The notes below the pieces were generated by a model that ran no database searches, was not told the origin of the DNA, and was given only the letters and a program-made list of their open reading frames with translations. From an uncultured Mycoplasmatota bacterium (GTDB lineage: Bacteria; Bacillota_I; Bacilli_A; RF39; UBA660), in assembly GCA_900547225.1 (NCBI GenBank), contig URFW01000003.1:13054-77053 (forward strand): 64,000 nucleotides of DNA. Direction: 5' to 3'. Each line of letters begins with the position of its first letter. The stretch's first letter is position 1. This document shows, in pieces, positions 33,211 through 40,838 of this stretch. Both the position numbers and the translations under genes were made by a program.

Positions 33211-34647
33211 ATGAAAAATAAAAATGATATTATAAAAAACAAGGGATTAATCTTAATAATTATTTTTTCTTTTTCTTTGATATTTTCACTTGTATACGTA
33301 AACTTTTACGCAAGTAATATTTATGTTAAAGACTTTAAAAGTACCGAGAAAATAGAAGTGTTTAAAAAATATAAAAACAGTAAGATAACCGCTTGTTATG
33401 GAACTAGAATAAGATGCAAGAAAATTACTTACAAAATAAAGGGGAGCGTTAATACTAAAAGAATTGGTACTTATAACGTAACTTATAAGATTGATTATAA
33501 AGATAAGCACGTATCTAAAATTAAAAAAGTTACCGTAGTTGATACTAAAAAGCCAGAATTAGTAATTGAAGGTTCCTTTTTAAACGTTTGTCCAAACGGA
33601 AAAACAAGTGATGTTAAGATAAGTGCAACTGATAATTATGATGGTGACATAACAAAAAATGTAAAATATAAAATAGAAAAAAATAAAATTAAATATAGAG
33701 TATCAGATTCATCTGGTAATATGGCAAGAAAAGAGTTTGATGTTAATATTATGGATAATGAAAAACCTAGTTTAATTTTAAATGACGAATCTATTATATA
33801 TTTAAGTGTGGGTGCAAAATACGTAGAACCAGGCTATGTTGCAATTGATAATTGTGATGGAAACATAACGGATCAAGTTTTAGTAAGTGGTGCAGTAGAT
33901 ACTAAAAAGCCTGGAACTTACGTTTTGACATACAGCGTAAAAGATGAAGAAGGAAATTTAAGTGAAGCAAAAAGAACCATAAAAATTTTCCCTAAAAATA
34001 ACTATAAACCAGGAGTTAATACCGCTAAAACAATTTATTTAACGTTTGATGATGGACCTGGAGCACATACGGCAAGACTACTTGACATACTTAAAAATTA
34101 TAATGTTAAGGCAACCTTTTTCGTAACGGGATATAATAACAATTACAATGATTTATTAAAAAGGGAAAAAGAAGAAGGTCACACGATTGGTCTTCATAGT
34201 TATTCACATAATTATAGTCTTATTTATACATCAATTGATGCTTATATGGAAGATTTATTAAGTATACAAAATAAAGTTAAGGAGTATACTGGCGAGGAAT
34301 CCAAAATAATAAGATTTCCAGGAGGTAGTTCTAATACGATAAGTAGAAAATATAGGGCCCATATAATGAGTGATTTAACAAGTAAGGTAGAATCCCTTGG
34401 ATTTAGATACTTTGATTGGACAATTGTATCAGGTGATGCTGGAGATACTAAGGATTCAAATAAGATAGTGTCAAACGTAACTGGTGGGATTACGGAAGAT
34501 GGGTTAAACGTTGTTTTAATGCACGACATAAAACCTTATACGGTAGATGCTATTGAAAGAATAATTACGTTTGGTCTTTCTAATGGATATACGTTTGCAC
34601 CTCTTACGATGGATAGTCCGGTTGTGCATCAAAAGGTTAATAACTAA
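33211..34647 (+). CDS. polysaccharide deacetylase (NodB domain) with N-terminal Ig-like (DUF5011/HYR-type) repeats
   Basis: TFDDGP, H-S-x-S-H (GLHSYSHNY) and the other NodB motifs in the C-terminal half. Two repeats of roughly 60 aa (…DNYDGDITKNV… / …DNCDGNITDQV…) lie upstream. Signal-anchor at the N-terminus. Confidence 0.85.
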   Translation: MKNKNDIIKNKGLILIIIFSFSLIFSLVYVNFYASNIYVKDFKSTEKIEVFKKYKNSKITACYGTRIRCKKITYKIKGSVNTKRIGTYNVTYKIDYKDKHVSKIKKVTVVDTKKPELVIEGSFLNVCPNGKTSDVKISATDNYDGDITKNVKYKIEKNKIKYRVSDSSGNMARKEFDVNIMDNEKPSLILNDESIIYLSVGAKYVEPGYVAIDNCDGNITDQVLVSGAVDTKKPGTYVLTYSVKDEEGNLSEAKRTIKIFPKNNYKPGVNTAKTIYLTFDDGPGAHTARLLDILKNYNVKATFFVTGYNNNYNDLLKREKEEGHTIGLHSYSHNYSLIYTSIDAYMEDLLSIQNKVKEYTGEESKIIRFPGGSSNTISRKYRAHIMSDLTSKVESLGFRYFDWTIVSGDAGDTKDSNKIVSNVTGGITEDGLNVVLMHDIKPYTVDAIERIITFGLSNGYTFAPLTMDSPVVHQKVNN

Positions 34648-34740: not shown

Positions 34741-35688
34741 ATGCAAAAAAAAGGAATTGACATAAGTCACCATCAAGGAGACATCGACTTTGACAAATTA
34801 AAAGGAAACATAGATTTTGCAATGGTAAGAACAAGTTATGGTTCGTTTTATGAAGATAAAAAATATAAAAGAAACATAAAAGAGTTAGAAAGAGTAAAAA
34901 TTCCGTACGGATTATATCACTTTTCTTATGCAACAAATGTAGAGTCTGCAAAAAAGGAGGCTACAGGTTTTATAAACATAATAAAAAAATATAATCCTTT
35001 ATATCCAGTTGTAATTGATATAGAAAGCTCAAGCAGAACGTCTAACGTTAGGAATGATACATTAGTTGATATAACATCTACCATATGCTCTATGATAGAA
35101 AGTGCCGGATATTACGTAATGATATATGCTAATAAGGATTATTTAACTGGTAAATTAAATAGTTCAAAACTAGATAGATATGATAAGTGGCTTGCCGAAT
35201 GGAGTAGTAAACCTACGTATAATAAAAACTTTGGTATCTGGCAGTATTCATCTAAGGGAAGCTTGCCTGGAATAGTAGGGAACGTTGATTTAAACATCGC
35301 TTATAAAGATTATCCTAGTATAATTAACAATAAAAAACCAGATGCATCATCTAGTGATAGAAAAAAAGAAAGTAATTCCGTTATAAATTACGTGGTTAAA
35401 AAAGGAGATACGCTAAGCGCTATTGCAAGTAAATATAACACCAATTATAAATCTTTAGCAGAGTATAACAACATTAAAAATCCTAATAAAATTTATCCTG
35501 GACAAATAATAAAAATACCAAATAAAGAGGCTTCTGCTCCAACAACTTACATTGTAAAAAAGAAAGATACATTAAGTGCTATTGCAAGTAAATATAATAC
35601 TACTTGGAAAAAACTATATGAAAAAAATAAAAACGTAATTGGTAAAAATCCTAATAAAATATATCCAGGAATGGTATTAAAAATATGA
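34741..35688 (+). CDS. GH25 muramidase (lysozyme) with two C-terminal LysM domains
   Basis: GIDISHHQG...DFAMVRTSYG GH25 N-terminus. Two LysM repeats (YVVKKGDTLSAIASKYNT..., YIVKKKDTLSAIASKYNT...). Confidence 0.85.
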   Translation: MQKKGIDISHHQGDIDFDKLKGNIDFAMVRTSYGSFYEDKKYKRNIKELERVKIPYGLYHFSYATNVESAKKEATGFINIIKKYNPLYPVVIDIESSSRTSNVRNDTLVDITSTICSMIESAGYYVMIYANKDYLTGKLNSSKLDRYDKWLAEWSSKPTYNKNFGIWQYSSKGSLPGIVGNVDLNIAYKDYPSIINNKKPDASSSDRKKESNSVINYVVKKGDTLSAIASKYNTNYKSLAEYNNIKNPNKIYPGQIIKIPNKEASAPTTYIVKKKDTLSAIASKYNTTWKKLYEKNKNVIGKNPNKIYPGMVLKI

Positions 35689-35789
35689 TTTTGGTTAACA
35701 CTACATAGTGTTAACCTTTTTAGTTACTATTGACTTTGAAATAAAATAAATGTATTCTATATTTAGATAATAAAGGAGAGAAGATTATA

Positions 35790-36302
35790 ATGAAGAAACA
35801 AAGTATAGCAATTATTGGCGTTATAGCATTCGTTTTAGCAGTTGTAGTTGGATATGCATTATTTAGTGATAATTTAACTGTTAGTGGTAGTGCAACCGCA
35901 ACCGGAGATTTTGATGTTGAGTTTACTAGTGTAGGAGAAATTACTAAGGTAGGTTATACAGCAGTTGATGCAACTGAAATAGCAAAAATTTCTGAAGATA
36001 AAAACACGTTAACGGTAACTGTTAATAAGCTTGATTATCCAGGTGCTTATGTAACAATTCCTGTTACTATAACTAATAAAGGTTCAGTTTCAGCCAAATT
36101 AAAAAACATTAATGAAACCGGGTTAACACAAGATAATAGAGCAATAAAAGTTACATATACAGGTGTTGCAGCAAGTGATACGGTAATAAAAACTAATGAT
36201 ACTCAAGCAATGAATATTAAGGTAGAATGGGATCCATCTATAAATACCGGATCATCAGACGTAACTTTCCAAATCACTTTGGAATACGAACAAGCAAAGT
36301 AA
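35790..36302 (+). CDS. TasA/camelysin-like secreted protein with SipW-cognate signal peptide (paralog 1)
   Basis: MKKQSIAIIGVIAFVLAVVVGYALFSDNL fits the SipW-cognate class signal (hydrophobic helix followed by G-Y-A-x-F-S-D). Roughly 140-aa beta-rich body. RBS AAAGGAGAGAAGATTATA-ATG. Confidence 0.65.
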   Translation: MKKQSIAIIGVIAFVLAVVVGYALFSDNLTVSGSATATGDFDVEFTSVGEITKVGYTAVDATEIAKISEDKNTLTVTVNKLDYPGAYVTIPVTITNKGSVSAKLKNINETGLTQDNRAIKVTYTGVAASDTVIKTNDTQAMNIKVEWDPSINTGSSDVTFQITLEYEQAK

Positions 36303-36345: not shown

Positions 36346-36864
36346 ATGAAAAAACAAAACATGATAATAATAGTCGTGGTTGCTTTTTTGCTTACGATAA
36401 CAATTGGTTACGCATTATTTAGTGAAAGTTTGAGCATCAATGGAACAGCTTTAGCAGAAGGAACTTTTGATGTTGAATTTACTTCTGTTGGAACACCTAC
36501 GTGTATAGGTTTTACCGGAACATGTGATTCTAATACATTAACTGGTATTTCATCTGATAAAAATACGTTAAACGTGACCGTTAATAAATTGGAATTTCCA
36601 GGTGCTTATGTTGAATTTCCTGTTACCGTAACTAGTAAAGGTACTATTCCTGCGGTTTTGGAAAGTATTTCAGAAACAGGACTTGAAACTGATGATACCA
36701 TAAAGGTAACATACACCGGTATATCCGAATTAAAGGGCCAAAAATTAGAACAAAACGGGACTCAAACTTTTAGTATTAAAGTTAAATGGGATGAAAATTC
36801 TAATAAATCTTCTGAAAACGTGCAATTTTCAATAAAAATGAATTATAAACAAATTGCAGAATAG
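36346..36864 (+). CDS. TasA/camelysin-like secreted protein (paralog 2)
   Basis: …IGYALFSESL signal and a body collinear with paralog 1 (KLEFPGAYVEFPVTVTSKGTIPAVLESI). Start set to ATG 36346 after RBS GTGAGGTGG. Confidence 0.65.
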   Translation: MKKQNMIIIVVVAFLLTITIGYALFSESLSINGTALAEGTFDVEFTSVGTPTCIGFTGTCDSNTLTGISSDKNTLNVTVNKLEFPGAYVEFPVTVTSKGTIPAVLESISETGLETDDTIKVTYTGISELKGQKLEQNGTQTFSIKVKWDENSNKSSENVQFSIKMNYKQIAE

Positions 36865-36981: not shown

Positions 36982-37587
36982 ATGGAAACACATTCAAAAA
37001 ATAAAAAAAGTTTAAAAATTATTAGTGTTATAGTTGCAATATTGGTGTGTTTAATGAGTGTTGGTTACGCCTTTTTTAGTGATTCTTTATCTATTAATGG
37101 AGTTGCATCAACCGTTGATTACTATAGTGGTACAATGCTTCCAACAAACCCTATTATGTTAAAACCTGAAGATAATTTATATAGTACCTATGATACGTCT
37201 AGAAGTAAACTTTCTTTAAGGGAAGAACACTGGGTTGGAGACACTTTTATAGTAATTTGGAACAAGGGAGTAGGTATTTCAATATCAAGAAAGACAATTA
37301 CTTATACAATTTCATTTTCTAATCCAACTGAACTTCCATATACGAATGGACAAGTTACTACTAAAATAGAAAATAATGGTTTAGGTTATATAAAAAGTGC
37401 AACAGGATCACTTTCTAAAACTACATTACAGCCCGGTGAGGCAGTAGAAGTTAAACTAACTATTACATCTAATTTTTTATCAAGACTAGATGATCAAGAT
37501 ATAACTGCTACAATTTCATATGAACTTCAAGGGGAGACAAAGTATTTTTACTTTGTAGTTAAGTATCGCGGTTGGGATAATGATTAG
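36982..37587 (+). CDS. TasA/camelysin-like secreted protein (paralog 3, divergent body)
   Basis: …VGYAFFSDSL signal. The body is more divergent and Thr/Ser-rich. Confidence 0.6.
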   Translation: METHSKNKKSLKIISVIVAILVCLMSVGYAFFSDSLSINGVASTVDYYSGTMLPTNPIMLKPEDNLYSTYDTSRSKLSLREEHWVGDTFIVIWNKGVGISISRKTITYTISFSNPTELPYTNGQVTTKIENNGLGYIKSATGSLSKTTLQPGEAVEVKLTITSNFLSRLDDQDITATISYELQGETKYFYFVVKYRGWDND

Positions 37588-37615
37588 TATATTTAGGAAT
37601 AAGGGTGGTGAAAGA

Positions 37616-38812
37616 GTGAAAAGAAGATTAAAAATAATTTTATTGTCGATATTAATTTTAATATCGGCAGCACTTGAGTTTGCGGGCTTATCAGCTCATT
37701 TTGGATCTTCTTATTCTTATGTTATAAAACCAATTATTTGGGTGTTTATTGGCATAATAACGTATTTTTTCTTTAATGACGATGTTATTCCAAATCTAAA
37801 GCATAAAAAAGAAGTAGAGTTTTATACAATAGTAACAACACTTATATACTTTGTAATATATTTTGGTTTAGGTTATATAAAAGGTTTTGCACATAATCCA
37901 TATGACTACACGCTAAAGGGAGTATTAAATAATTTATGGGTGTTTGTTCCTGTTGTAATTGTAAAAGAATACGTAAGATATTACATGATTAATAATACTG
38001 GTACAAAAAATATATTATTACATGCATTATTAATTTCTATTTTACTTACTATGATAGATTTAAATATATACAAGCTTAACTCTTATTTTTCAACGTCACT
38101 AAGTGTTTTTGAATTTATAATTCAAAACTTTATCCCGAAATTGATAACAAATTTATATTTAACATACATATCATACTATGCTGGATATAAAACTACAATT
38201 ATTTATGCTTTCATACCACAATTTTTGTTGTATGTTTTACCAATACTTCCAGATTTGGATATGGCAACAATGTCTATTCTAAATTCATCTATTCCATTTT
38301 TCTCTTATGTTTATATAAATTATATTATAAATAAGCTAGAGAAAACGTTGGATAGGAAAAGAAATAAAGTGGTGGGTATAAAAGGATATGTATTAATGAT
38401 TTTATTTGTTATCATCATGATTTTATTTGGGCTTGGTATATTTAGTGTTCAACCGCTTGTTATTGCAAGTAATAGCATGTTACCTAGCATAAGAAAGGGA
38501 GATATTGTAATAATAACAAATAAGAACACCAAAAAAATAAAAAAAGGAGAAATAATAAGATATAGGATTGATAATTATTATGTTGTCCATAGAGTTGTTT
38601 TAATAAAAAAAGATGAAAGAGGAAACAGAACGTTTATAACTAAGGGAGATAACAATAGCAACATTGATCTTTTTGCGGTAAAAGAATCTCAAGTAGATGG
38701 GGTTGTTAAAGTGGATATTCCTTATTTAGGTTACCCGACTTTATTGTTTAATAAACTACTAAATACTGGAGTAGATAAAAGGGTTATAATTGATAAAGGA
38801 AGAATAAATTAA
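37616..38812 (+). CDS. sipW: SipW-type (archaeal/ER-type) signal peptidase I fused to a ~260-aa polytopic N-terminal membrane domain
   Basis: The C-terminal roughly 130 aa carry the SPase boxes (IASNSMLPSIRKGD with the catalytic Ser in SM-x-P, YYVVHRVV with His, and TKGDNN). The N-terminal about 260 aa are highly hydrophobic with at least 7 predicted TM helices and no recognisable motif. Start set to GTG 37616, which is 5 nt after AAGGGTGGTG; the six-frame ORF begins at 37580. Confidence 0.75.
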   Translation: MKRRLKIILLSILILISAALEFAGLSAHFGSSYSYVIKPIIWVFIGIITYFFFNDDVIPNLKHKKEVEFYTIVTTLIYFVIYFGLGYIKGFAHNPYDYTLKGVLNNLWVFVPVVIVKEYVRYYMINNTGTKNILLHALLISILLTMIDLNIYKLNSYFSTSLSVFEFIIQNFIPKLITNLYLTYISYYAGYKTTIIYAFIPQFLLYVLPILPDLDMATMSILNSSIPFFSYVYINYIINKLEKTLDRKRNKVVGIKGYVLMILFVIIMILFGLGIFSVQPLVIASNSMLPSIRKGDIVIITNKNTKKIKKGEIIRYRIDNYYVVHRVVLIKKDERGNRTFITKGDNNSNIDLFAVKESQVDGVVKVDIPYLGYPTLLFNKLLNTGVDKRVIIDKGRIN

Positions 38813-40746: not shown

Positions 40747-40838
40747 AATTTGAATTTTAAAGGTTAGTTTTATTGACTAGCCTTTTATTTATCTTAAATT
40801 TTTGATATAATTTAAATGTTTAAGAAAGGAATGATTTT

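Follow-up and report, generated by a model that had tools for sequence, protein, structure and literature searches.

What does a signal peptidase gain from a large polytopic membrane domain at its N-terminus? The question is raised by a gene on the forward strand (37616-38812) of a 64,000-nucleotide stretch from an uncultured Mycoplasmatota bacterium (assembly GCA_900547225.1, contig URFW01000003.1, positions 13,054 to 77,053); this whole stretch is called the window here, and all positions are counted from its first letter. The gene encodes a fusion whose C-terminal part reads as a signal peptidase of the archaeal/endoplasmic reticulum (ER) type and whose N-terminal membrane domain likely adopts a fold like that of the CPBP proteins, the family of the CAAX proteases. 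It probably serves an AbpX-type (TasA-superfamily) fibre operon as its dedicated signal peptidase. We give an even chance to the reading in which the membrane domain has no catalytic role and is built in as a scaffold and substrate gate of this peptidase.

The fused peptidase and its fibre operon

The gene is one open reading frame (ORF), without internal stops from an ATG at 37580 to its end at 38812. Judged by sequence, the GTG at 37616 is the better start, because the ribosome-binding-site-like AAGGGTGGTGA precedes it at 37601-37611, because it gives the modal homologue length of 398 amino acids (aa) and because homologue N-termini align with its MKRRLK. The upstream in-frame ATG overlaps the final codons of the preceding gene, subunit paralogue 3 (window 37580-37587). 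In some database entries gene callers used this ATG or still longer starts, giving versions of 410-428 aa; these N-terminal extensions are probably mis-annotations. The unusual length alone speaks for an artefact, either a wrong start codon or a frameshift-merged pair of genes, and the chance of one is negligible: the frame is continuous, the 398-aa length is common to hundreds of homologues in different phyla, residue-level conservation is strong across the whole N-terminal domain, and no plausible internal start was found, none with a ribosome-binding site near the domain junction, where the sole nearby Met sits within the ninth transmembrane (TM) helix. On the open frame and the comparative data both variants were rejected. 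The initial annotation, which had placed a polytopic domain followed by a signal peptidase between 37616 and 38812, is thus borne out by the uninterrupted ORF; a downstream Met start or a separate, frame-shifted N-terminal gene, which it had named as fatal to its reading, was not found, and most homologues have the same length.

The three boxes which that annotation had recognised (SM-x-P, HRV and GDNN) are present as S287-M-L-P290, H325-R-V and G344-D-N-N347, all within residues about 270-391. Conservation was assessed here in 161 sequences with a mutual identity of only about 20-75%. The catalytic boxes (S287, H325, G344-D-N-N347 and D351) are conserved in 99-100% of them, except for N346 (93%), and S287, H325, D345 and D351 are invariant (100%), which corresponds to a Ser nucleophile with a His general base, not Lys. 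Residues about 270-391 score 88 bits against TIGR02228 (sigpep_I_arch, cutoff 51.85), and the score of 49 bits against NF046067, the equivalog of Bacillus subtilis SipW, lies below the cutoff of 190 for membership. By these sequence criteria the fusion ends in an archaeal/ER-type Ser/His signal peptidase that is intact and tethered by one in-to-out anchor helix, TM9, and with the Lys/Arg-rich linker before TM9 the catalytic domain is predicted to lie outside the cell on an N-in/C-out helix. A C-terminal TM helix is absent from the fused protein; the family has lost the one that unfused SipW-like neighbours keep.

AlphaFold2 models, with which hydropathy agrees, place eight long helices in residues 2-241. 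The full-length model has a predicted local distance difference test score (pLDDT) of 92.2 and a predicted template modelling score (pTM) of 0.86, and the model of the N-terminal domain a pLDDT of 95.4. The eight helices are followed by a basic linker (242-254), the ninth helix (255-277) and the beta-rich catalytic domain. The N-terminus, residues 57-63, residues 127-132 and the linker are rich in Lys/Arg, with positive-inside loops throughout, and from the placement of these segments an N-in topology is predicted, with the peptidase outside the cell. The earlier count of at least seven TM helices was therefore right about the polytopic character of the domain and too low, as there are eight plus the TM9 anchor. 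Near-invariant positions of the domain are N106 (98%), E118 (98%), R121 (99%), G86 (95%), P174 (92%), P209 (96%) and P212 (98%). Within TM4, E118 and R121 are located about 8 residues in from its cytoplasmic end. Of the extracellular elements, the TM3-TM4 loop, the PILP loop between TM7 and TM8 and the outer half of TM9 are conserved best; a short strand in the TM3-TM4 loop (91-93) is adjacent in the model to a strand at 210-212.

The peptidase gene is one of six between terminator-like hairpins, which encode, in this order, three small secreted paralogues of 170, 172 and 201 aa, the peptidase, a fourth paralogue of 164 aa and a DUF5305 protein. A profile of 26 subunits matches AbpX in the PDB (9sj2_C, E 5.7e-9; 9rhp_A, E 4.8e-7; next match 0.04), and AbpX 9sj2 is the sole PDB match of paralogue 1. 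In the profile alignment the FSETL of the subunits starts on residue 2 of mature AbpX from Pyrodictium abyssi, which leads to the prediction that the precursors are cleaved behind the invariant Ala of G-Y-A. The mature N-termini of paralogues 1-3 (LFSD, LFSE and FFSD) carry an aromatic amino acid in position 2 and an acidic one in position 4, as in the AbpX donor strand; the cognate substrates that had been proposed around the gene are thus found, with the SipW-type motif GYA/xFS[DE] (the slash marks the cleavage site). Across 158 subunit-like ORFs the stretch without charges between the last Lys/Arg and the cleavage site is 19 residues long in the median (interquartile range 19-20), and the site itself has Ala at P-1 (81%), Gly at P-3 (75%) and Phe/Trp at P2' (83%).

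To sample the family we used 80 loci from GTDB species representatives (L001-L080). The fusion occurs in 78 of them, a count biased by search patterns drawn from both domains. In 72 of the 78 fused loci a DUF5305 gene starts at most 1.5 kb downstream of the peptidase; the six others are three loci cut by contig ends and three from Chloroflexota. In 76 of 78 a subunit-like gene is found no more than 5 kb away, and the order subunit(s)-peptidase-DUF5305 recurs, so that a multi-TM signal peptidase I (SPase I) and a DUF5305 gene adjoin the subunits as expected for an AbpX locus. The loci come from gut Bacilli labelled Mollicutes/RF39-like, Clostridia, Tissierellia, Chloroflexota, Filifactor villosus and the oral Lachnospiraceae Stomatobaculum longum and Oribacterium; the closest is that of Clostridium sp. 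CAG:594 (75% identity), with the same flanking genes. The N-terminal domain alone, the query that the initial annotation had suggested, was searched against 1.84 billion representatives of 50% identity clusters and matched 816 clusters at E<=1e-3; 117 of the best 150 are 355-425 aa long, and all 15 shorter matches inspected are truncated or chimeric fragments, giving no evidence of a free-standing form. Fusion is thus the norm of the family, the domain being found essentially never apart from the peptidase. A second search with an 85-sequence profile returned nearly the same close relatives and added little, and a 266-aa ORF in L025 with a weak match to the N-domain hidden Markov model (HMM; E 9e-4) was set aside as apparently unrelated.

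Some loci also encode ordinary SipW-like peptidases that are unfused and have a C-terminal TM helix (L022, 283-852 and 4448-5041; L027, 1111-1605; L079, 7863-8378). The one in L079, of 171 aa, resembles the C-terminal half of the fused family, has no N-terminal domain and no DUF5305 gene nearby, and is a possible natural "domain deletion".

Loci of this kind have recently been reported from archaea, Bacillota and Chloroflexota, with an SPase I that is "structurally distinct, possessing ten TM helices" and with DUF5305 as a putative SPase accessory subunit (Sleutel et al., January 2026, bioRxiv 10.64898/2026.01.04.697558). The AbpX loci of that preprint resemble ours in their AbpX-like major and minor subunits, their multi-TM TIGR02228-type SPase I, their DUF5305 protein and the phyla concerned. 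They are treated differently, in that the peptidase receives one sentence without a fold or function, and CPBP, CAAX and Rce1 are unmentioned; the helix counts (eight plus one here, ten there) are compared by description, not by alignment. The initial annotation had called the architecture no part of the described paradigm, which holds for B. subtilis SipW but not with respect to the preprint. The architecture has therefore been noticed in print in passing and is still uncharacterised. Our literature search found no paper combining CPBP, signal peptidase and TasA; new here are the CPBP-like assignment, the analysis of the degenerate motifs, the parallel to SpbR and SpdC, and the statistics on fusion, operon and signal peptides. 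B. subtilis SipW is likewise an archaeal/ER-type Ser/His peptidase dedicated to TasA-superfamily substrates with an aromatic P2', which Escherichia coli LepB cuts poorly (PMC10269814), but it has about 190 aa with two TM helices, one N- and one C-terminal, and no polytopic domain.

Likely relation of the membrane domain to CPBP proteins

The initial annotation saw no recognisable motif in the N-terminal domain, and at the level of sequence models we agree: residues 1-260 match no Pfam or NCBIfam model, either in the window protein or in 85 family members. Aligned with hhalign to 28 genuine PF02517 proteins, the domain is colinear over 118-164 columns (local mode) at a probability of only 16-26%. 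In this register E118 and R121 fall on the second Glu and the Arg of the CPBP motif EExxxR, one residue closer together, and D148 falls on the catalytic His of motif 2, preceded by F/Y four residues before in 70% of sequences. Position 148 is D/E/N/S in the family, the position of the motif-3 His (198) is variable, and no His is conserved in the domain. On this alignment neither catalytic histidine is left, a Glu/Arg pair is retained where motif 1 would be, and the canonical CPBP catalytic apparatus is absent. The domain thus probably belongs with the CPBP folds with degenerate catalytic motifs, of the type of SpdC, SpbR and LnsB.

We regard a CPBP-like fold as likely, and sequence homology to CPBP as unproven. 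With a single sequence the hhalign probability is 0.3%, and a profile of the domain gave chance matches only among PDB sequences (PRMT, E about 1). A Foldseek search of the PDB returned no match for the domain, so that the fold has no confirmation from this method. Exosortase, rhomboid and PrsW-type readings found no support in Pfam, NCBIfam or the residue pattern. The analogy to exosortases drawn in the initial annotation is not supported: the window protein contains no Cys, its N-terminal domain has no conserved Cys or His, and no exosortase HMM matches, the NCBIfam matches being to peptidase families only.

Two staphylococcal proteins offer the closest parallels. SpbR of Staphylococcus aureus is a degenerate CAAX homologue with eight TM helices and the motifs HELYMR, FIYLD and QIVAI, which forms a 1:1 complex with the signal peptidase SpsB through the SpsB TM helix (contacting SpbR TM5 and TM7) and an extracellular loop, and inhibits cleavage by SpsB (PMC12260438). 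Compared by motif description, SpbR and our domain seem to share a retained motif-1 Glu and Arg and the replacement of the motif-2 His by Asp (FIYLD in SpbR, F/Y-x-x-x-D/E here). The SpbR-SpsB system differs in consisting of two polypeptides, in the bacterial Ser/Lys housekeeping nature of SpsB and in the inhibitory action of SpbR. SpdC, a non-catalytic CAAX homologue of the same species, binds the single TM helix of SagB along its TM3 and the SagB ectodomain on its TM3-TM4 loop, and so orients the active site (PDB 6u0o); SagB, however, is a peptidoglycan glucosaminidase, the complex is non-covalent, and sequence identity is 11%. The active CPBP or type II CAAX proteases (MmRce1, 4cad; MroQ; myxosortase) stand further away, since FxxxH and HxxxN/D are absent here, PF02517 does not match and no prenylated or C-terminally tagged substrate is evident. 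Haloarchaeal TafD with TafG and the eukaryotic signal peptidase complex likewise combine an ER-type catalytic subunit with membrane accessory parts, and by genetics the tafi fibre subunit depends for its processing on TafD together with the DUF5305 protein TafG. TafD, however, has four TM helices, an extra C-terminal domain and Tat-pathway substrates, and the accessory subunits of the eukaryotic complex (SPC12, SPC22/23 and SPC25) are unrelated to CPBP.

Possible roles of the membrane domain

The scaffold and gate is suggested because a degenerate CPBP bundle and a single-pass peptidase, here joined covalently, are the parts of the SpdC and SpbR systems. In such an arrangement the bundle would pack against TM9, and the TM3-TM4 and TM7-TM8 loops would seat the catalytic domain at a fixed height over the membrane, comparable to SpdC-SagB and SpbR-SpsB; a docking role of the TM3-TM4 loop may be modelled on the SpdC loop that docks the SagB ectodomain. 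A lateral cleft in the bundle could admit the uncharged signal helix of 19-20 residues of the cognate precursors, and the Glu/Arg pair near the cytoplasmic face might, more speculatively, read the basic n-region, with the constant length of the helix serving as a ruler. Cleavage exactly after G-x-A would free the N-terminal donor strand (x-F/W-S-E/D...) for donor-strand polymerisation, and the DUF5305 protein may complete a small prokaryotic "signal peptidase complex" as a further accessory subunit. The substrate-docking platform proposed in the initial annotation is plausible in this respect, as it fits both a scaffold fold of the SpdC/SpbR type and a fixed, uncharged signal helix. The covalent fusion itself is observed, and the pTM of the whole chain is only suggestive of an association of N-terminal domain, TM9 and ectodomain.

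Several points weigh against the scaffold and gate. The contacts of the N-terminal domain with TM9 and the catalytic domain are inferred, not seen. None of the 85 family members matches Pfam PF02517 at E<=10, the hhalign probability is as low as stated above, and the count of fused loci carries the bias of its two-domain patterns. N106, E118 and R121 are conserved at 98-99%, more strongly than a passive scaffold obviously needs, and may point to a site of catalysis or of a ligand. Next to substrates with similar motifs (GFA/SW in L079) there are unfused SipW-like peptidases, and the N-terminal domain is therefore not strictly required to cut the motif. In SpbR, the sole studied case, the CAAX-like partner inhibits its peptidase (PMC12260438).

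The last point leads to the idea that the CPBP-like domain restrains the peptidase until a signal relieves the block, with DUF5305, Ca2+ or the growing fibre end as candidates. Besides the precedent of SpbR, which inhibits and is the one CAAX-like partner of an SPase I studied by experiment, it could draw on the chaperone-free and Ca2+-triggered polymerisation of AbpX, for which the timing of release could matter, and on the DUF5305 protein, which has a cytoplasmic domain and nearly always adjoins the peptidase. However, an inhibitor permanently fused to a dedicated enzyme would be an odd design, no sensor element was identified, and the analogy is indirect as SpsB is a bacterial-type Ser/Lys peptidase; we consider autoinhibition unlikely. 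We are similarly doubtful about a second active site, in which, once the S26 domain has cut, an E118-dependent intramembrane protease degrades the released, unusually hydrophobic signal peptides in the manner of a signal-peptide peptidase, or else trims the cytoplasmic n-region of the precursors. E118 and R121 match the S26 catalytic residues in conservation and occupy the position of motif 1, about 8 residues into TM4 from the cytoplasmic side; the Rce1 site, reportedly placed by Manolaridis in 2013, is likewise about 10 A into the membrane; and abundant subunits would load the membrane with TM-length signal peptides. Yet the motif-2 and motif-3 His, on which active CPBP proteases depend, are missing, no conserved residue takes their place, the spacing from Glu to Arg differs from EExxxR, and SpbR and SpdC mutants in retained motif-1-type residues had no phenotype.

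That the polytopic domain is an export or assembly conduit, which translocates or polymerises subunits, has very little in its favour. Its tight genetic linkage with fibre subunits, and nothing else, points in this direction, but the signal peptides of the subunits are of the classical N-terminal kind, fold matches are confined to CPBP proteins and include no transporters or ushers, and P. abyssi AbpX polymerises in vitro without any chaperone. This reading is the fibre-export platform of the initial annotation, which is not supported, given these ordinary signal peptides and as nothing channel-like was found.

Beyond the scaffold and gate itself, the fusion could be read, tentatively, as a "Rosetta stone" that reveals dead CAAX-protease folds as general partners of signal peptidases. 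With DUF5305 it might then form a holo-complex that measures the 19-20-residue helix between the cytoplasm-side Glu/Arg and the outer-face Ser/His sites, and that couples cleavage to donor-strand release and fibre growth. We would rate this wider proposal as possible and rather doubtful.

Subunit genes, neighbourhood and wider meaning

The features of the fused gene and of its operon are collected in the table below. The third subunit paralogue is likely a minor or tip component. The fourth has no acidic residue at mature position 4 and may have a specialised part as terminator, anchor or initiator instead of being a bulk fibre subunit; its slot between peptidase and DUF5305 holds a homologue of 163-168 aa in most of L001-L014 and one of 204 aa in L002, is empty in L012, and cannot be followed in L003, which stops at a contig edge.

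The signal peptides of the subunits have no polar c-region, and the cleavage site directly ends the TM-length helix. All 26 aligned subunits have an invariant Gln 2-4 residues from the C-terminus (Q168 in paralogue 1, ...L-E-Y-E-Q-A-K); apart from it, invariance is confined to the start Met, the cleavage-site Ala, G33, P84 and G98. The Gln could lie in the last jelly-roll strand or be a cross-linking site. In five loci (L017, L022, L057, L066 and L074) proteins of 690-850 aa encoded downstream of DUF5305 have a subunit-like signal and donor-strand motif, e.g. ...STTYALYTTQLIINGTA; by this resemblance these proteins of Clostridia loci may be tip adhesins, candidates for incorporation into the fibre via the same peptidase.

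Immediately upstream of the operon the window encodes a polysaccharide deacetylase with surface Ig-like domains (33211-34647) and a GH25 lysozyme with two LysM domains (34741-35688). Among the closest loci, most (L001, L003-L009 and L014) have ORFs of the same sizes, about 417, 470-478 and 315-347 aa, ahead of the operon, so that these genes may share a cell-surface neighbourhood with it.

Table. Features of the fused signal peptidase gene and its operon in window coordinates
Feature	Position	Strand	Remarks
Terminator-like hairpin, upstream end of operon	35693..35716	+	
Subunit paralogue 1, AbpX-like, 170 aa	35790..36302	+	signal peptide 35790-35858 predicted, cleavage after G-Y-A23, mature LFSD...
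Subunit paralogue 2, 172 aa from ATG 36346	36346..36864	+	cleavage motif GYA/LFSE; ORF open from GTG 36331
Subunit paralogue 3, 201 aa	36982..37587	+	GYA/FFSD; in "GVASTVDYY" subgroup
Fused signal peptidase gene	37616..38812	+	398 aa, GTG start; likely CPBP-like 8-TM domain plus archaeal/ER-type signal peptidase I
N-terminal domain, residues 1-241	37616..38338	+	8 TM helices, N-in/C-in (predicted), likely CPBP/Rce1/SpdC-like fold
TM3-TM4 loop, extracellular, conserved (G86...G90-F91...P95-Y96)	37871..37903	+	conservation 65-95%
N106, outer third of TM4	37931..37933	+	98% conserved
E118-Y-V-R121, cytoplasmic third of TM4	37967..37978	+	single Glu 98%, Arg 99%; aligned with CPBP motif 1 EExxxR, spacing E-x-x-R
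D148	38057..38059	+	Asp/Glu in 66% of family; aligned with motif-2 catalytic His of active CPBP proteases, His absent
P209-I-L-P212, extracellular TM7-TM8 loop	38240..38251	+	P209 96%, P212 98%
Basic cytoplasmic linker, residues 242-254, EKTLDRKRNKVVG	38339..38377	+	charge fixes topology; lower pLDDT 67-76
TM9, residues 255-277, in-to-out peptidase anchor	38378..38446	+	outer half conserved: F271 85%, G274 96%, F276 80%, then P280 87%
Extracytoplasmic catalytic domain	38447..38809	+	S287 38474-38476, H325 38588-38590, G344-D-N-N347 38645-38656, D351 38666-38668
Subunit paralogue 4, 164 aa	38921..39415	+	GYS/VFKM, without acidic P4' residue (mature position 4)
DUF5305 membrane protein, 364 aa	39428..40522	+	PF17231 55 bits; putative SPase accessory subunit
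Terminator-like hairpin, downstream end of operon	40759..40785	+	

Donor-strand fibres of the TasA/AbpX type are a major cross-domain class of biofilm matrix proteins, and in this family, which comprises hundreds of species including human-gut Bacilli and oral Lachnospiraceae, their dedicated peptidase is hard-wired to a CAAX-protease-like membrane domain. In databases these proteins are labelled only "signal peptidase I", with two thirds of the protein lacking a domain model. If the domain positions or gates the peptidase, this would explain a role for many "orphan" CAAX homologues of bacteria and would turn what was recently found for SpbR-SpsB, a regulator acting on a housekeeping enzyme, into an instance of an ancient design principle. 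The fusion would then also serve as a model, simple and genetically compact, for a signal peptidase complex of several parts.

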